From positions 1 through 64,000 of the IMG/VR virus record IMGVR_UViG_2595698524_000001: DNA of 64,000 nt; one strand, written 5' to 3'. Source of the stretch: a virus (lineage: Duplodnaviria; Caudoviricetes). This document shows, piece after piece, positions 3,508 through 39,608 of this stretch (position 1 is its first letter; every line of letters starts with the position of its first letter). The notes beneath the pieces are model-generated. The model did no database searches. It was not told the origin of the DNA and was given only the letters and a program-made list of their open reading frames with translations. A program made the position numbers and the translations under genes.

Positions 3508-3885
3508 GTGAATAAGAACTTTTTTGACTACTTGAGGGCGGGTGAGTTTCCTTGTGAGGTCACCTACGACGGAGGCAAATATAAAACGTTTATCGCGTTC
3601 ATTACCACGACTCCCTACTTCAAGAGTTTCATCGATGAATTTACCGCTGTAGAAGAATGCATCAACTTTGAATTACCGCATACCTTGACCTGTCCGTCCG
3701 CACTGACAGTCGCCGATGTTAAAACCATGATGAAAAATTCAGACCACATGGACTACCTGTTGCGGCATCTGGTTGATAAGTTGCTCCGTGCAGAGGATTC
3801 GTATGAGTCAATCTTCGCGGCGTTGTTTGACTATTACTACATGGTTCGGAACTACACCCAGATACCATTAGACACCGTACACTAA
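3508..3885 (+). CDS. hypothetical protein
   Basis: GTG start after AAGGAG; the ORF-track start at 3439 lies upstream of the promoter motif. Confidence 0.75.
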   Translation: MNKNFFDYLRAGEFPCEVTYDGGKYKTFIAFITTTPYFKSFIDEFTAVEECINFELPHTLTCPSALTVADVKTMMKNSDHMDYLLRHLVDKLLRAEDSYESIFAALFDYYYMVRNYTQIPLDTVH

Positions 3886-32178: not shown

Positions 32179-32190
32179 GTGAGGGGCAAG

Positions 32191-33891
32191 ATGTTCGTCA
32201 TTAACGTTATGCATACCAGCATGGGCTTTCGAATAGAAGTGCCCGTGAGGGTTATCGAATTAGCCATTTTAAAGTTCGCTGAAGATAACTTGCATGCGCC
32301 CAAGATGGGGCGCGACCATGGGAGAATTACCGTCGAAAAGGGGGACGCCTATTACGTACACGTTCCTTCGATGAACTGGTTCTACTTCCACAAGGACTAC
32401 TTCCATCGCATTAAGCAGATTGTTCTGAACACTGCGATTGAGTACAACAAGCAAGTGGAGGTGAAGGAACACACCTACCAACGCGGTGAGCCGTACAAGT
32501 GCGAATTCGATAACTATGGATTTCAGATGGAAGTGACCGACCCTGAGTCGCGTTTCTACTATCAGAATGAAGTGGTAGAAAAAGCACTTGACCCGCTGTA
32601 CCTGCAGATTATCTTTGCCATCCAGACAGGGAGAGGTAAGACAAAATCAGCACAAAAGGTCATGGTGAAACGCGGTGTTCGCACCGTATTAATCCATCGC
32701 CCCACTTACGTAGCCAAGTGGAAGTTCGACTGTATCGACGATGAAACCGGTCTGCGTGTGGATGAGAAGCACGTGTACGTTGCGCAGGGAACGCAAGGTA
32801 TTTATGACCTGATTGAAGACGGTCGAACCGGCAAGCTCGACAAAATGGGTATAAAGGTGGTTATCCTCCCGACGGTGTCACTGTTTAACTTCATGAAGGA
32901 AGCGATTGCAACCATGGCGTCAAGCCCGGTGAACTTCGAGTCTTTCTACGACGATATCGGTGCCGGTCAGGTGGTGTACGACGAAGTGCACGAACACTTC
33001 CTGTTGGTGTACCTCAGTGGGATTTTGTTGAACCCGCCGTACTCACTGGAGATGTCTGCTACCTTGAAGCCGGGCGCTGCGAAGAAGTTTATCGCTGACC
33101 GTTATCTGGAACGTTTCCCGATGCGCTTCCGCGTCAGTGTTCCTTATATCCCAGTGGTGGATATCCGTGGCCTGTACTACAGCATTGATGACCCAAGCTT
33201 TATCAGGCGTGTGGGTCGCATGTCGCCGTATAACCACAAGTTGTTCGAGCAGCAACTTATTAAACACAAGCTTGAAGATTCGTACTTCTCGATGGTGTTT
33301 GATATCATGAAGCGGTCCTTCCTCGATAAGTATGAGCCGGGTCAAAAAGCGTTGGTATTCTTCTCCTTAGTAGAAATGTGCGTCGCGTTCACAAAGTATG
33401 TGAAGCACCGACTGCGTAACGGAGATGGGCCAAGCGGACTGACCGTGGCGAAGTACAATGCGGGGGACAGCTACGACGAGTTCATTGCTGCAGATATCGG
33501 GGTCTCGACTCCGGGGAAAGCAGGTACCGCAATTGACATACCCGGTTTGGTGGTGGCTATTGTTACCATTGCAATCGATGACCGTCAGTTGAATGAGCAG
33601 ATTGCTGGTCGTCCACGTGAAGTGACTAAGTGGGACTTAACACCAAAAGTGTTTTTCCTGCATTGCAGTGAAATGCCAAAGCACTTGCAGTATTTGGCGT
33701 CACGGCAAGAGTCGCTGAAGGAAGTAGTGAAGTCGTTCCTGACTTCATTCTCCCCTTACGTTATAAGGAAAACGCATGCTAGCTCCTCCTTCTCCGGCAG
33801 TGCCCCTACCGCCGTATCAAGGTTTAAGTCTATCAAGCCTTCTCGAAAAGGTTTTACGGGCTTACCCGGCCGTCGAGGACGCCGTCGTTAA
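32191..33891 (+). CDS. SF2 DExH helicase (UvsW/phiKZ gp75-like)
   Basis: TGRGKT, DEVH, SAT and QIAGRPRE motifs. Confidence 0.9.
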   Translation: MFVINVMHTSMGFRIEVPVRVIELAILKFAEDNLHAPKMGRDHGRITVEKGDAYYVHVPSMNWFYFHKDYFHRIKQIVLNTAIEYNKQVEVKEHTYQRGEPYKCEFDNYGFQMEVTDPESRFYYQNEVVEKALDPLYLQIIFAIQTGRGKTKSAQKVMVKRGVRTVLIHRPTYVAKWKFDCIDDETGLRVDEKHVYVAQGTQGIYDLIEDGRTGKLDKMGIKVVILPTVSLFNFMKEAIATMASSPVNFESFYDDIGAGQVVYDEVHEHFLLVYLSGILLNPPYSLEMSATLKPGAAKKFIADRYLERFPMRFRVSVPYIPVVDIRGLYYSIDDPSFIRRVGRMSPYNHKLFEQQLIKHKLEDSYFSMVFDIMKRSFLDKYEPGQKALVFFSLVEMCVAFTKYVKHRLRNGDGPSGLTVAKYNAGDSYDEFIAADIGVSTPGKAGTAIDIPGLVVAIVTIAIDDRQLNEQIAGRPREVTKWDLTPKVFFLHCSEMPKHLQYLASRQESLKEVVKSFLTSFSPYVIRKTHASSSFSGSAPTAVSRFKSIKPSRKGFTGLPGRRGRRR

Positions 33892-34153
33892 GTTATGTGA
33901 AGACTCGGTGACTCGCCGAGCTTTCCATTACTACATGGTGACCGAGCATTACGCTGGAATGTTTATCACCCAACGCGGAAAGACGTACTACGTAACTCGT
34001 GTTAGCAGCATCCGCAATACCGCCTCGTATGAGCAGTATAGTTGGGTACTCTGGCACGATGACCAATCCGGTACGTCGGTAGACGAGAACCCGAAAGTGG
34101 CCTATCGCTTGTATTCACACAAGTGGATGGACTGGGTTACCGTTAAACATTAA
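33776..34153 (+). CDS. hypothetical protein overlapping the helicase 3' end
   Basis: AAGGA RBS; 116-nt out-of-frame overlap. Confidence 0.65.
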   Translation: MLAPPSPAVPLPPYQGLSLSSLLEKVLRAYPAVEDAVVKLCEDSVTRRAFHYYMVTEHYAGMFITQRGKTYYVTRVSSIRNTASYEQYSWVLWHDDQSGTSVDENPKVAYRLYSHKWMDWVTVKH

Positions 34154-34860: not shown

Positions 34861-37023
34861 ATGAGTCAAGAAACTGAAAACCAAGGTCGCCCATTTATGG
34901 GTGGCCCTGCTCACCATGTGGACGAAGCACTGCCGTCCGCTGAAGACCATGGCTTCAAAAAGATTGATGAAGAGGATTACGATCCGGAAGCCGCCCGTAA
35001 ACTGTGGTTAGAAACACGTGAGCGTGAGCGCAAAGCCGCACTGGAGGCAGGGAATGGTGGTGAAAGTGGCAATAGTGGGGGGCATGCCTCTCCGACTGCG
35101 CGCGTTATCAATCCAAGCGCTCCTGCTGGCGGGCGTGCAGATAGCGAGCGAGCAGGAAGTGGAACAGGACAGGAAGTCGAGACAGCCGTTCACCGACACG
35201 TCGATCCTACCCCTGTGCAAATCCCTGTTCAGCAGCCCGTGGAACGGCAAGTTTCCACAGCACCCGCCGCACGAGCTGCATCCGAAGCAGTTCCACACGT
35301 TGACGCTGCCCCGGCACAGCCGCAGCATGCGCCGACCCAAACGCAGGAAGTGACGCATGGCATCAAGCAAGAAACCACGCAAGCGCAAGGCGCGGAAAGC
35401 GTTTTACAACGACCAGCGTCTGGCGGACAGGAACGAGGACATGTCCAACAACCTGTCTCGCCAGTCAGCCCAGCTCAACAGCCAGCTGCAGATGCTGCGC
35501 CGGCCGCAGCAGCGGATGACTCAGCTACGGACAAGACGCGTCGCATAGCGTCCCTGCTGGAATCTCCGGTACCGCGTGGTGAACGTAGCGAGTTGATGAA
35601 ACTCGATGACGATGACCCGGTTGGTATGTTGTCGGGTATGGCACTGGTCGGTGGTCTGCGTAATCTGGCGCAGTCATCCAAAAGCTTCAATGCGTTCTTC
35701 CGTACGCTGGAGCGTAATCAGGAAGGTCATCCGGTCTTCCGTTCGCCGCAAGAAGAGGATATCTACAACCGCATCCTGCAGATTATGCAGATCGCGTCCC
35801 CTTCTATGCAGAACGGTAATCAGGCTCAGTCCGAAGCTGCGCTGCGTGAAGACATCCAATGGCGTCAGGAACTCGATACCGGTTCAGATGAGAAGTTCGT
35901 CATCAAGAACCATCCGAAACAAGCGCACGGTTTGATGAAGTCTATCTACCGTCGTCAGAACTCGGGTGCGCCGGTTACGGTATTCCTACCTGCGTCGGGT
36001 TTCTTTATCACGTCGAAAGCGCCGCATGAAAACGATTTCTGCGACTACGACGTGGCGCAGACCATGGATACCAATCAGGTAGGTCTGTCGACCTTCGGTA
36101 TTCTGCTGTCCGCATCGTCTGGCCTGTATCTGAAGCACATGGTTAACTTCGCCCTGAAATTCGTCGTGGATACCACGCTCGATATCGGCGACGGTGACAT
36201 GCATCAGACGCTGTATGCGAAAATCGATGAACGTGACTACTGGCTGGTTGTCATGGCATGCACCATTGCGAAATACCCAGGCGGTATTCCGTGGCTGATG
36301 TCATGTACTGAACCGCAGTGTACGTTTGAAGAAGAGCAGAAGCTGAACATCGCCCGCTGCATTCGTTACGCGAACGGGATTCTGTCGCCGACTCAGCTGG
36401 CCATCATTAACCGCCAGCGTGAAGGTGAACCGTTAACCTTCGACCAGCAGAACGAGTATCGTCGTCAGCACGTGGTTGACCCATCCTCCAAATGGGAAGA
36501 CAACGACCTGACCTTCCGCTTTGCTCACGCGTCAATTGCTCGTTATATTGACACGTCTGAAGAGTGGGTGGCGGACATTAACCAGTCCACGACCGATGCG
36601 TTGGGTAACTATGCGACAGAGCAAGAGCGTAACAGCTACATGCGTACTGCCGCAGAGACCCGTCGTCTGACTCGTTACCTGCACTTCATCGAATCCATCA
36701 CTGCGAAAGCAGAAGGTGATGATGAGCCGTACGTTGAACGCGACCCGATTAAAATCCGTGAAGCGCTGGTTGCATTGTCTTCTGACCGTGCATTCGTTTC
36801 ACGCTTTGAAGCGGCTATCGAGAAGTTCAACGAGCGCAGTCGTCTGGCCATCTTTGGCTACATGTCCCATCGCTGTCCGCAGTGTGGTGCACAGACGGGT
36901 GAGAAAGATGGCGCGTTCCGTGGTATCGTTGAGATTTCACCGGACAGACTTTTTTTCGTGCTCTCTCGAGTGGTGTACGAGATTCAGAAACTCTTAACCG
37001 ATCAATACGAAAATATTGGTTAG
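34861..37023 (+). CDS. putative tail/baseplate-hub assembly chaperone (G-like, zero-frame product)
   Basis: 720 aa; disordered N-terminal ~220 aa; CTEPQC and CPQC Cys pairs; slippery site near the 3' end. Confidence 0.6.
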   Translation: MSQETENQGRPFMGGPAHHVDEALPSAEDHGFKKIDEEDYDPEAARKLWLETRERERKAALEAGNGGESGNSGGHASPTARVINPSAPAGGRADSERAGSGTGQEVETAVHRHVDPTPVQIPVQQPVERQVSTAPAARAASEAVPHVDAAPAQPQHAPTQTQEVTHGIKQETTQAQGAESVLQRPASGGQERGHVQQPVSPVSPAQQPAADAAPAAAADDSATDKTRRIASLLESPVPRGERSELMKLDDDDPVGMLSGMALVGGLRNLAQSSKSFNAFFRTLERNQEGHPVFRSPQEEDIYNRILQIMQIASPSMQNGNQAQSEAALREDIQWRQELDTGSDEKFVIKNHPKQAHGLMKSIYRRQNSGAPVTVFLPASGFFITSKAPHENDFCDYDVAQTMDTNQVGLSTFGILLSASSGLYLKHMVNFALKFVVDTTLDIGDGDMHQTLYAKIDERDYWLVVMACTIAKYPGGIPWLMSCTEPQCTFEEEQKLNIARCIRYANGILSPTQLAIINRQREGEPLTFDQQNEYRRQHVVDPSSKWEDNDLTFRFAHASIARYIDTSEEWVADINQSTTDALGNYATEQERNSYMRTAAETRRLTRYLHFIESITAKAEGDDEPYVERDPIKIREALVALSSDRAFVSRFEAAIEKFNERSRLAIFGYMSHRCPQCGAQTGEKDGAFRGIVEISPDRLFFVLSRVVYEIQKLLTDQYENIG
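36951..36982 (+). promoter_or_regulatory. putative -1 ribosomal frameshift signal
   Basis: in-frame T TTT TTC heptamer; TCTCG/CGAGA hairpin 6 nt downstream; -1 frame open from 36933 to 37412. Confidence 0.7.
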
Positions 37024-37412
37024 ACAACGTCGGCTTAAGCCATGAAACCCTGATTAACACGCTTAAGCTTGACACCACCTCTCTGTTTAAGCGTCGCGAT
37101 CATCGGGCCGTGACCTACCAAGAAGCGTTTGACGAGCTGATGGCCTCGTACGACGCCTCCTTGGAATTAGACACGGGGCGGTTTCACGTGGGGATGTCCA
37201 GTCAGGAAGACCCACTTGCTAACTCGCTGTACCAGATATGGGTGGAGACGTTCATTCGTGAGGATGTTTTCAAGTATACCGGGATGAACCTTGACCAGTT
37301 CTTAGACCAGCCGCGTTGGAAGATTGAGATGCAGTTAAAAGCTATCAAGCGTCGCCATCAGGACGAGAACGCACTGGCCACCGAAATACAGAACAGCCTA
37401 CCGAAAGACTAA
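36957..37412 (+). CDS. frameshift extension (T-like), including ORF 37110-37412
   Basis: 151 stop-free codons in the -1 frame after the slippery site; GTG at 37110 has no clear RBS. Confidence 0.65.
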   Translation, partial: RALSSGVRDSETLNRSIRKYWLDNVGLSHETLINTLKLDTTSLFKRRDHRAVTYQEAFDELMASYDASLELDTGRFHVGMSSQEDPLANSLYQIWVETFIREDVFKYTGMNLDQFLDQPRWKIEMQLKAIKRRHQDENALATEIQNSLPKD

Positions 37413-37414
37413 AC

Positions 37415-37445
37415 GGGTGCCCTTCGGGGCACCTTTCTTTTTTTG
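37415..37445 (+). terminator. intrinsic terminator
   Basis: GGTGCCC-TTCG-GGGCACC followed by a T-tract. Confidence 0.85.
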
Positions 37446-37483: not shown

Positions 37484-38347
37484 ATGAACGAACTATACAA
37501 CTTCTACGCCAACTGCTTAATCGAGGTGCGCCATCCTGAGCGCGCTGCGCCGTTGTGCGAGTTGGTGATGATGGCCATCGACAACGATTACGAACCTGCA
37601 CTGGAGCAGATTTATAATCTGGAAATGGATGACGTTGCTACGCACATCGACACGCTGGAAGGTTGGATTATCAGCTGCGTAGTAGGGTTAGGTCATCGAC
37701 TGGGTATCGCTTTTGATGCCGACACCTGCTACCGCAATCCGCGTATTCCGCTGTTGGTATTAAAAGCCGTACTGGAAGACCTCGAGAACTTCGAGGACTA
37801 TGAACATTTGCAAGCGATTGCTGAATCGGGCGAGCCGGAAGTGATTGTGTTGGAAAACATGATTCGCTACGTGCGCGGGGATGATTTCTTTGAGATTGGT
37901 TCCGCGATTACGCTGGTAGAGCCACGCATCATGAACGTCATCGGCAACTTCCTGAACGCACGGGCAATCACTGACCAGGCGACGGCAATTGACGATGCTG
38001 AACTGCAACGTTTGGCTAAGTACATTCTGCTGTACCCTGAGAACCCATCCGTCTGGGCTTTCCAGAACGCTGCGCGTACCACTGAGCCGAATGTGTTGGC
38101 AACCACGCTTGTGTTTGAGAACACCGGTGTGCCAGAAGAACGCCTGCTGGAGATTTACGCGGTCGGGATGTCCATTTACAACAACGACACCTTTGACGGG
38201 GCGTATGCCGCACTGGAACAGCGTCTGGCAATTATCAATAACGATGCATTACCTGCCATGCCTATTCTTAAATCGGCGGTAGAGTCACTGCGCGCGATTT
38301 ACGAGGTCACGAATGGACAAGCTTCATTACCTGATAGCGGCGTGTAA
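37484..38347 (+). CDS. conserved protein (phiKZ gp79-like), probably virion-associated
   Basis: 287 aa; TATG at 37455; co-transcribed with the vRNAP subunit. Confidence 0.6.
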   Translation: MNELYNFYANCLIEVRHPERAAPLCELVMMAIDNDYEPALEQIYNLEMDDVATHIDTLEGWIISCVVGLGHRLGIAFDADTCYRNPRIPLLVLKAVLEDLENFEDYEHLQAIAESGEPEVIVLENMIRYVRGDDFFEIGSAITLVEPRIMNVIGNFLNARAITDQATAIDDAELQRLAKYILLYPENPSVWAFQNAARTTEPNVLATTLVFENTGVPEERLLEIYAVGMSIYNNDTFDGAYAALEQRLAIINNDALPAMPILKSAVESLRAIYEVTNGQASLPDSGV

Positions 38348-39608
38348 CAGTCACGCGTGGAAGCGACTGACGTGGCGCATGTCTATCTTTAACGTGTGCC
38401 GGTTTCCGGAGAACGTGGAGCCGAAAGCATACGACCTGAATTTCATTGACGGCATTCCGCACTTCTGGAACGTGGATGAAGATTCGTTGGGGAACTGGGA
38501 AGCGATTGCCGGAACGAAAAAGGATGAAGAACTGTTCTGGCCGGAAGAAGAAATCGCGATTAAGGCGGGGGATTATCCGGGACTGAATAAAGACCTGATA
38601 ACCTCAGCGGGTCGCTATGTCGCCAACTGGATTGTGGTGTACTTCTCAGTGGGCACTCGCTTACCTTATCTGGAAGACGGCACTTCGTTCTTGGTTTATG
38701 AGAACGAACTGTATAGCCGTTGTCTGGAATACGGCACGGATAAGCCGGACGACACGGAAGCGTTGCGCCCGAGCCATGTAGCCGCGTTTATACAGGGCCT
38801 GAGCGAGCTTTCTCCAATGTGTAAGGCGATTGCACCGACAGGCACGTTGCGTTCGTTAGAGACGCATCCAGACCTGTATAAGGTACGTGATGCTTTGCTG
38901 GAGAAGCACAAGGATGAGCTGGATGACCCGGCTGTCGTGGTGAAGATTCAGAAGATTCTGGATGACATGGATACCGAATGGTTGCAGGGCGACCAGTCAA
39001 TCGAGTTCTATAAGTCCAAGAAATCCCGCATGCGTCGTCGTAAGCTGCTTATCATGCACGGGATTGAAGCCGCCTTTAAAGAAGGCGGTGATTATACGCT
39101 GATTCCGACATCGCTGATTGAGGGCGGTGACCTGACCAAACTCGTTGAGAAGTTCAACGGGGTGCGTGAGGGTTCCTTCTCCCGTGGTGCCGAAACAGCA
39201 AAAGGTGGTGAACAGGTTCGAATCATCCAGATGATTTTCCAGAACCACCGTATCACCTCTGACGATTGCGGTACGAAGCTTACACATCTCGTCTTTATTA
39301 ATGAGGCGAATGTCACTCGCTATATCGGCATGAACATGGTTGAGACAGGGAAGCTTGTCCCGTTAACCAAGTCGATGCTGAACGGTATGGTGGGCAAAGC
39401 TATCCGCATTCGACGTCCTATCTTATGCCAACGAGGTCACGTTGACACTTGTGCCGGCTGCTCCAGCGTTGCAAAGTCGAAAGAAGAACGAGCGATTGCC
39501 GCGGATATTTCCGGGGCGATGTCGAACGTTATGTTGAACGCAATGGGTGCAATGCATGGCCGAGATACCGTGGTGGCCGAATTCAAACCCCGATTCCACA
39601 TTACCTAA
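38313..39608 (+). CDS. virion RNA polymerase beta' middle subunit (phiKZ gp80-like)
   Basis: REGSFSRGAETAKGG (bridge helix), DDCGT, RRPILC...CAGC, MGAMH. Confidence 0.85.
   Translation: MDKLHYLIAACNSHAWKRLTWRMSIFNVCRFPENVEPKAYDLNFIDGIPHFWNVDEDSLGNWEAIAGTKKDEELFWPEEEIAIKAGDYPGLNKDLITSAGRYVANWIVVYFSVGTRLPYLEDGTSFLVYENELYSRCLEYGTDKPDDTEALRPSHVAAFIQGLSELSPMCKAIAPTGTLRSLETHPDLYKVRDALLEKHKDELDDPAVVVKIQKILDDMDTEWLQGDQSIEFYKSKKSRMRRRKLLIMHGIEAAFKEGGDYTLIPTSLIEGGDLTKLVEKFNGVREGSFSRGAETAKGGEQVRIIQMIFQNHRITSDDCGTKLTHLVFINEANVTRYIGMNMVETGKLVPLTKSMLNGMVGKAIRIRRPILCQRGHVDTCAGCSSVAKSKEERAIAADISGAMSNVMLNAMGAMHGRDTVVAEFKPRFHIT

Follow-up and report, generated by a model that had tools for sequence, protein, structure and literature searches.

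How is a short open reading frame (ORF) translated when it lies beyond the end of a long gene, in another frame and without a convincing start signal of its own? This question is raised by a locus in positions 1 to 64,000 of the IMG/VR virus record IMGVR_UViG_2595698524_000001 (Duplodnaviria; Caudoviricetes), a stretch of 64,000 nucleotides (nt) that we refer to as the window. The source is a Derbicusvirus-like Erwinia jumbo phage with a genome record of 223,989 bp, and the nucleotide identity of the window is 81% to the phages EarlPhillipIV, Derbicus and pEa_SNUABM_38 and 77.5% to Phobos. Here a T-run near the 3' end of an ORF of 720 amino acids (aa) precedes a small ORF in the -1 frame. From the comparisons described below, we argue that recoding very probably yields a fusion of the two ORFs, and that the T-run is likely to act as a conserved, unannotated programmed -1 ribosomal frameshift site.

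The 720-aa ORF (34861..37023; like all window features given here, on the + strand) encodes a member of the phiKZ gp77 / PhiPA3 gp074 / 201phi2-1 gp136 family. At 22 codons before its stop it reads AGA CTT TTT TTC across a run of seven Ts (T7, 36950-36956), which contributes to a slippery heptamer T_TTT_TTC at 36951..36957 (0-frame CTT TTT TTC, Leu-Phe-Phe). The upstream limit of the open -1 frame is a TGA at 36930..36932, six codons before the -1 TTT that overlaps the slip site and kept in four Derbicusvirus relatives; from there the frame is open to a TAA at 37410-37412. Beyond the slip site, the -1-frame extension (36957..37412) comprises 151 codons and the TAA, the last 100 codons being the small ORF as called from a GTG at 37110. 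Since this GTG is the earliest ATG, GTG or TTG in the -1 frame, the slip site is followed by 51 start-less codons (36957-37109), which are unannotated and would encode peptides such as YWLDNVGLSHETLINTLK; direct reading of the sequence found no purine-rich ribosome-binding site upstream of the GTG. Within the dual-frame overlap (36957..37023), the 0 frame encodes the tail VLSRVVYEIQKLLTDQYENIG and its stop, and the -1 frame begins RALSSGVRDSETLNRSIRKYWL. A TCTCG/CGAGA inverted repeat (36964..36968 / 36978..36982) with a 5 bp stem and a 9-nt loop lies 6 nt past the heptamer, and an intrinsic-terminator-like hairpin with a T tract (37415..37444; arm span 37415-37434, 8 pairs, 6 of them G-C) stands directly after the stop of the -1 ORF, the second ORF being the only one of the two that is followed by a terminator. 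The predicted fusion would have 699 + 151 = 850 aa, with the junction ...SPDRLFF-RALSSGVR. The original prediction of a frameshift here, which a model had made from the sequence of the window alone, was accurate on re-reading in its coordinates for the heptamer, the -1 TGA, the 51 codons, the GTG, the hairpin arms and the terminator, and its product sizes of 720 and about 850 aa agree with those computed.

Taken singly, these elements are unremarkable. The window holds 18 T7 runs against 14.1 +/- 4.9 in shuffled sequences, so that T7 alone is not unusual, and by simple arithmetic some 59 open codons would occur by chance alone with a frequency of roughly (61/64)^59 = 6%. It is because the site is conserved across phages, rather than because of the T7 or the open frame alone, that it stands far above chance.

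We therefore examined conservation at two distances, beginning with an alignment of five Derbicusvirus-like phages (the window, EarlPhillipIV, Derbicus, SNUABM_38 and Phobos). Around and after the heptamer, 53 consecutive nt are identical in these five phages, which are otherwise 77-81% identical. A short variable linker follows the 0-frame stop and precedes 26 conserved -1 codons, and in these 26 codons, which lie ahead of the GTG at 37110, none of the 13 variable sites alters the -1-frame amino acid (12 are third codon positions, and the other is a C/T change at the first position of a Leu codon). The GTG itself reads GTA in EarlPhillipIV, Derbicus and SNUABM_38; the TTG annotated as the start in Phobos is CTG or CTT in the other relatives; and the small-ORF start annotated in EarlPhillipIV and Derbicus is an internal ATG. 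In addition, the match of the small ORF to its family phrog_7580 (E 1.7e-45) begins 14 codons upstream of GTG 37110. The synonymous sites, the reach of phrog_7580 and the shifting starts together indicate that the unannotated codons are coding in the -1 frame, without a conserved initiation site.

A second group of relatives, SPN3US, Asesino, Huxley and pEa_SNUABM_43, reads GTT TTT TTC at the site, with a 0-frame stop about 21 codons on and an open -1 frame, and T7 followed by C is invariant in 14/14 sequences of the SPN3US group. Read by eye, the first -1 codon in this group is CGT, CGA or CGC and thus always Arg, while the 0 frame has GTG, GAG or GCG (V/E/A); further into the overlap, GTA, GTC and GTT preserve Val in the -1 frame against TAC, TCC and TTC (Y/S/F) in the 0 frame, and two more -1 Arg codons behave likewise. 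The 0 frame in the overlap also shows synonymous changes (CTC/CTA, CGA/CGT and ATT/ATA, again by eye), and the 0-frame tail and its stop are themselves conserved in both the five-phage and the SPN3US-group alignments. These substitution patterns argue that purifying selection on the -1 frame sets in with the codon that directly follows the slip, that both frames are constrained in the overlap, and that the strong nucleotide conservation at the site is better explained by double coding than by a hairpin.

How far does this arrangement extend? About 20 jumbo-phage lineages share the T-run together with the open -1 frame, among them phiKZ, PhiPA3, 201phi2-1, SPN3US, a Bacillus phage, and phages of Ralstonia, Vibrio, Aeromonas and Serratia. 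A tblastn search with the stop-to-stop -1 peptide matched 62 phage records, 60 of them in one piece over at least 80% of the query and from residue 1-4; the same search with the phiKZ-type extension matched 68 Pseudomonas phage records (67 in one piece, at least 80% covered, from residue 1-2), and the conserved C-domain of the large ORF matched 209 phage records. Since the matches begin at residue 1-4, conservation begins at the slip site. Diverse lineages were translated together, and in 16/16 of them the -1 frame is open all the way from the T-run through the small ORF, as it is in Vibrio phage JHP1101. Arithmetic on the annotation tables places the annotated small ORF in the -1 frame for 24 of 25 annotated records.

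At the T-run, phiKZ (KTN4) and 201phi2-1 read ACT TTT TTT in the 0 frame, PhiPA3 reads GTG TTT TTT and Bacillus phage AgentSmith GTT TTT TTA; in all four the run coincides with the homologous Phe-Phe motif, and an open -1 frame leads from it into the small ORF. A T-run at this motif is common to all the lineages examined. Further lineages, parsed by eye, read ACT TTT TTT (RP12), GTT TTT TTT (RSF1, AH06 and Deimos-Minion), GGT TTT TTT (Moabite and KpLz-2_45), ACT TTT TTC (Aeromonas D3), AGT TTT TTC (Vibrio VP4B), ACG TTT TTT (Phabio), ACA TTT TTT (RVTF4) and CTT TTT ACG, with T5 only (Vibrio JHP1101). Thus 16 of about 20 lineages have an in-phase heptamer of the form NNT TTT TTN, and the codon that precedes the T-run ends in T across five amino acids (CTT, GTT, ACT, AGT and GGT; Leu, Val, Thr, Ser and Gly). 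In Pseudomonas phage RVTF4 the conserved -1 peptide persists for about 45 codons, after which comes an extra, record-specific frame break. At this point (locus L033, ~2755-2800) the extension continues in another frame, where a small coding sequence (CDS) is annotated, probably owing to a 1-nt indel in the record.

In phiKZ, the pair consists of PHIKZ077 and PHIKZ076.4, with an annotated 218-nt 'gap' between them. The original prediction had taken the large gene to be a homologue of phiKZ gp77, on which tblastn and record notes agree, and had pointed to the conservation of the heptamer and of the open -1 frame at the corresponding phiKZ junction as a test; both were found there, as in the other lineages. 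It had placed that junction between the equivalents of gp77 and gp78, whereas the fusion partner in phiKZ is PHIKZ076.4 and the gp78 homologue is the upstream gene.

Several observations from this survey weigh against frameshifting, or limit what the counts can carry. Four lineages lack a canonical heptamer (PhiPA3, Phabio and RVTF4 have N TTT TTT, and JHP1101 has only T5). FF is a conserved amino-acid motif and, because of this, the T-run and its phase are partly to be expected. Some lineages have a start codon at the 0-frame stop or close to it (a TTG overlapping the TGA in 201phi2-1, an ATG overlapping the TGA in RP12, and start codons 12 nt after the 0-frame stop in RSF1 and Asesino), so that independent or coupled initiation is possible there. 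Codon phases in the twelve further lineages added to the survey and in the SPN3US group were parsed by hand; the lineages share ancestry, and their counts are not those of independent events; and the fusion protein is a prediction from sequence comparison.

Some of these observations would fit a locus with no fusion at all, at which the -1 ORF would be a gene of its own that relies on a non-canonical or lineage-specific start, or on termination-reinitiation, and the T-run would just encode Phe-Phe. Annotation takes this form throughout: a joined or slippage CDS appears in 0/26 annotation tables, all 26 of which list two separate CDS, and in several lineages an ATG or TTG coincides with the 0-frame stop or is found within 12-27 nt of it, besides FF being conserved as a protein motif. 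Set against this, there is no conserved start codon for the -1 ORF among the lineages compared (annotated small-ORF starts lie 10 to 87 codons past the T-run in the Pseudomonas phages, and the window has its 51 start-less codons), the -1-synonymous substitution pattern reaches upstream of every candidate start, and in the overlap the -1 frame retains its Arg and Val codons even where the 0-frame residues differ. Nor would a separate gene account for a small ORF that lies in the -1 rather than the +1 or 0 frame in 24/25 records, or for the final T of the codon preceding the run, which is there whichever of the five amino acids is encoded. We consider a separate gene quite unlikely, and retain a -1 shift at the T-run as the better account of the locus.

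Homopolymers are error-prone in some sequencing chemistries, which raises the question of whether the frame break is an artefact, the true sequence having one more T and thus a single 850-codon ORF, or alternatively a recent pseudogene. Independent genomes carry T5 to T8 with the frame relation unchanged, and about 130 independent phage records from different years share the identical -1 relation. At an IMG/VR locus identical to phiKZ (L013), moreover, contigs of four RNA libraries from four studies show T7 without insertion or deletion. The 0-frame tail and stop are conserved, and an in-frame version is absent from all the protein searches made: no match to the extension lies inside a longer protein among proteins of 280-2000 aa, ten close homologues of the body are 652-721 aa long, and a search of 1.84 billion representatives gave 28 matches to the extension, 25 of which were called as separate proteins of 80-147 aa. 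The other three are a 312-aa protein (P0017), a scrambled protein of 165 aa (P0024) and a weak match in a 5309-aa protein. P0017 was considered as an in-frame fusion and rejected, as its frame switches ~33 codons upstream of the T-run in what looks like an assembly indel; it and the RVTF4 record do have extra frame breaks that resemble indel errors. Overall, an artefact is very hard to credit, and the concern raised with the original prediction, that the T7 might be a sequencing error, is answered by the T5-T8 runs of independent genomes and by the RNA-library contigs.

Two further observations were made on these records. P0024 consists of blocks of about 20 residues of an SPN3US-type extension in reverse block order, contains the overlap peptide (GQGFFRAL, SGVRDSEILAGSIRRYWLDQ), and looks synthetic or mis-assembled. 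At L013, an extra A after position 3632, at the end of the PHIKZ076.4-type ORF, is present in 2/4 RNA libraries and is probably a strain difference.

If the frame is shifted at the T-run, by what means might this occur? Structure 5-9 nt downstream of the heptamer is usual, though not obligatory, in -1 frameshift cassettes, and the original prediction had noted the TCTCG/CGAGA hairpin 6 nt downstream. The 70-73 nt downstream of the site in the window fold no better than shuffled sequences (z = 0.03 to 0.39; pseudoknots lay outside the search); the stem has 0 compensatory pairs (RNAalifold) and is broken in 4/14 relatives; and we therefore rejected the hairpin as a stimulator. These results count against a ribosomal shift, as do a mean z of about -0.5 for the downstream 70 nt over 16 lineages, of which only RP12 falls below -2 (1/16), and the lack, by eye, of an upstream Shine-Dalgarno-like motif. 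A shift that lacks a detected stimulator may be inefficient, or may need some factor that the sequence does not reveal.

The same results bear on programmed transcriptional slippage, the main mechanistic rival, in which a phage-encoded RNA polymerase adds one U (or drops two) and the same 850-aa fusion results. rU:dA hybrids are prone to slippage; what is conserved is a homopolymer (T5 to T8), and the preceding T lengthens this run as well as completing the heptamer. Together with the RNA stimulator that was not found, the three lineages with N TTT TTT, a poorer site for tandem tRNA slippage, would be more easily accommodated by a slipping polymerase. Known bacterial transcriptional slippage sites, on the other hand, are about 9 nt or more in length, and the runs here are shorter. 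The contigs of the four RNA libraries, with T7 and no indel at the phiKZ site, also speak against it, albeit contigs hide minority variants and DNA carry-over is possible; a dominant edited RNA is therefore excluded, and a minority one may exist. On balance polymerase slippage seems unlikely, and tandem tRNA-Phe slippage on U_UUU_UUY is favoured, with the ribosomal nature and the efficiency of the shift being inferred. Thus, what stands of the programmed -1 shift as first proposed is the site, the open frame and the absence of a conserved start, now in about 20 lineages, while the hairpin, and the chaperone homology discussed below, do not.

In the proposed mechanism, tRNA-Phe would occupy UUU in the P site and UUC in the A site within the U_UUU_UUC of the gp77-like mRNA. 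In a fraction of passes both tRNAs would slip back by one base and re-pair with UUU_UUU, whereupon decoding would resume at CGU (Arg) in the -1 frame. Shifted ribosomes would then pass the 0-frame stop 22 codons later and end at the TAA at 37410, just before the terminator. The unshifted product would be the 720-aa protein ending ...LFFVLSRVVYEIQKLLTDQYENIG, and the shifted product a protein of 850 aa (...LFF-RALSSGVR...LPKD) in which the C-terminal helix is replaced by a mostly helical extension of 151 residues. Such an extension might, and we say this with low confidence, equip a fixed proportion of the protein with a module for interaction or oligomerisation.

What do the shared body and the extension look like? 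The body matches phrog_8054 (E 1.5e-290) and phrog_4585 (E 4.4e-72), both PHROG families of unknown function; record notes of relatives name phiKZ gp077 and EL gp47 as similar; and there is synteny with the phiKZ gp77 locus, with a gp78-like gene upstream and gp79/gp80-like genes nearby. Four Cys residues in two pairs are invariant in the C-domain of the body (C243/C248/C433/C436 of the aligned domain), and, with low confidence, the body is taken to be a probably zinc-binding, four-Cys protein. Its N-terminal ~240 residues (34861-35580) are of low complexity and rich in Pro, Ala and Gln; they are absent or unalignable outside Derbicusvirus, where tblastn matches begin at residue 238-246 or later. 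Neither ORF has a match to a Pfam family at E <= 0.1 or to an NCBIfam family. An AlphaFold model of the conserved body (predicted local distance difference test score, pLDDT, 78.8; predicted template modelling score, pTM, 0.80) has the 0-frame tail as its last helix. Among solved structures, the body had no relative by sequence below E = 0.63 and its model none in the PDB by Foldseek at E <= 0.001, and a wide VIA search reached no meaningful Z (best 5.3); in BFVD, the model matches its own orthologues. The model of the extension (pLDDT 73) is confidently helical in its C-terminal part, where the last element is a long helix. Its best Foldseek match to a solved structure has E = 5, and its best VIA match, to MerR-type C-terminal helices, a Z of 4.7 that is not meaningful. 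Sequence motifs of the extension (TYxEA..EL..AYD; SLY..W; FDxFLDxPR) are shared as far as the Bacillus phage. Two assignments suggested by the ESM Atlas, each flagged as often due to chance, were rejected: P2 GpE (score 0.84; 0/28 extension homologues match the family) and T4 Gp51_C (score 0.83; hhalign probability against gp51 0.15%, with 0/28 homologues matching).

The locus is surrounded by genes for a helicase, a gp78-like protein, a gp79-like protein and a virion-RNA-polymerase beta-like subunit, with no tail module among these neighbours. Two overlaps were noted in this region. Upstream, a small ORF (33776-34153) in the +1 frame shares 116 nt with the 3' end of the helicase ORF (32179-33891); the annotations of EarlPhillipIV, Derbicus, SPN3US, Asesino and Huxley retain this overlap, the small ORF starts after the helicase stop in Phobos and SNUABM_38, and the overlap could reflect a mis-set start or a second overlapping or recoded pair. 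Downstream, the gp79-like ORF (37484-38347) and the RNA-polymerase beta-like ORF (38313-39608) overlap by 35 nt, as likewise annotated in EarlPhillipIV, Derbicus and Phobos, and the second gene is annotated with a later start in SNUABM_38.

As to novelty, a search of the literature on phiKZ, SPN3US, 201phi2-1, Chimalliviridae and jumbo phages, as far as its texts could be searched and with supplements outside the search, found no report of a frameshift at this gene. The main texts of a phiKZ structural atlas and of a separate paper on phiKZ interaction proteomics mention neither gp76 nor gp77; the text available of a paper on the Erwinia phages RisingSun and Joad contains none of 'frameshift', 'gp41' and 'gp42'; and the main texts of a core-genome paper and an antisense-oligomer paper do not mention this frameshift. 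Searches for literature on PHIKZ077, and on SPN3US gp39 and gp40, found nothing. In the portions of the phiKZ literature examined, 'gp77' denotes genes of other phages and the 201phi2-1 'gp136' is a different gene, and the frameshifts in the Chimalliviridae texts seen are engineered mutants.

The mechanism is of a known kind; on the comparative evidence, what is new is its predicted use in a widely conserved jumbo-phage gene of unknown function. If the fusion is made, at least about 130 jumbo-phage genomes, those of phiKZ, PhiPA3, 201phi2-1 and SPN3US among them, lack a protein of ~850 aa in their annotation, and small ORFs such as PHIKZ076.4 and SPN3US gp40 are fragments with arbitrary start codons. 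Proteomic databases built on such annotation could then find neither the junction peptide nor the 50-90 'intergenic' codons. The site is retained though the extensions share only 11-20% identity, and both products would therefore seem to matter, which marks gp77, widely conserved and of unknown function, as worth study. A natural U-rich slip site for which no stimulator was detected could also serve as a model for frameshifting or polymerase slippage in phage-remodelled cells. One may speculate further, on a proposal that is rather unlikely to hold as a whole, that the recoding of this one gene into body-only and body-plus-extension forms in fixed ratio belongs to the core of what phiKZ-like (nucleus-forming) jumbo phages have in common with their relatives, the Bacillus phage among them; that it is the jumbo-myovirus counterpart of lambda G/GT or of T4 gp26/gp51; and that it requires no RNA stimulator in cis, perhaps by way of phage-modified ribosomes or the phage RNA polymerase.

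How, then, does the locus compare with known systems? In lambda gpG/gpGT and P2 E/E+E', a -1 frameshift in the genes of tail assembly chaperones is conserved. As in lambda G/GT, the shift predicted here would occur at a heptamer near the 3' end of the first ORF and give a C-terminally extended second product with a shared N-terminal body, and the arrangement is conserved across very divergent phages whose sequences barely align. Unlike in lambda, the body has 720 rather than about 140 aa, the locus is not between tail-tube and tape-measure genes, and the heptamer is U-rich rather than G GGA AAG. No sequence or hidden Markov model relation to lambda G/GT or tail-chaperone families was found in Pfam or PHROG, and 0/28 extension homologues match them. 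The original description of the pair as a G/GT-type chaperone with a T-type domain thus could not be upheld as homology, given the absence of Pfam matches, the PHROG families of unknown function, the 720/850-aa sizes and the non-tail neighbours. A functional analogy, with two forms of an assembly factor in fixed ratio, may still apply, its only basis being a weak likeness of predicted folds to T4 gp26/gp51.

This likeness comes from Foldseek matches of the body model to BFVD predicted models of T4-like 'baseplate hub assembly protein' and 'baseplate hub subunit' entries, which are weak (E 1e-4 to 1e-2, target-normalised template modelling score about 0.5). In the ESM Atlas, a match ranked 24th (score 0.89) has PF12322 on 24% of its members, and some submitters label orthologues 'T4 gp26 like'. 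T4 gp26 (208 aa, body-only) and the longer gp51 (249 aa) both belong to PF12322 T4_baseplate (215 and 177 bits). The window protein is about 3 times larger, and its extension has no similarity to gp51. Membership of the body in PF12322 is unsupported by Pfam scans and profile comparison: the domain was found neither in the window protein nor, above the gathering score, in any of 22 family members, and hhalign of the family against T4 gp26/gp51 gave probabilities of 1-6%. A scan of the whole 223,989-bp genome at E <= 10 was also blank for PF12322, as were control genomes, which makes that scan uninformative. With low confidence, the predicted models would allow the body to be an assembly factor distantly like gp26/gp51.

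In E. coli dnaX, the tau/gamma -1 frameshift has an upstream Shine-Dalgarno-like element and a strong downstream hairpin. The gp77-like gene resembles dnaX in having a bacterial-type tandem-slippage heptamer inside a long gene, from which two products with a common N-terminal part would be made; it differs in that dnaX shifts into a stop and so yields a shorter product, where the product here would be longer, and in that neither type of dnaX stimulator was detected. The orthologous pairs PHIKZ077 + PHIKZ076.4, PhiPA3 gp074 + gp073, 201phi2-1 gp136 + gp135 and SPN3US gp39 + gp40 are annotated as separate hypothetical proteins with arbitrary starts. In the Pseudomonas phages the 0-frame tail runs 8-13 codons past Phe-Phe, against 21 in the window, and the heptamer is T TTT TTT or N TTT TTT; all of these pairs have the T-run at FF and share with the window the -1 relation between the two frames.

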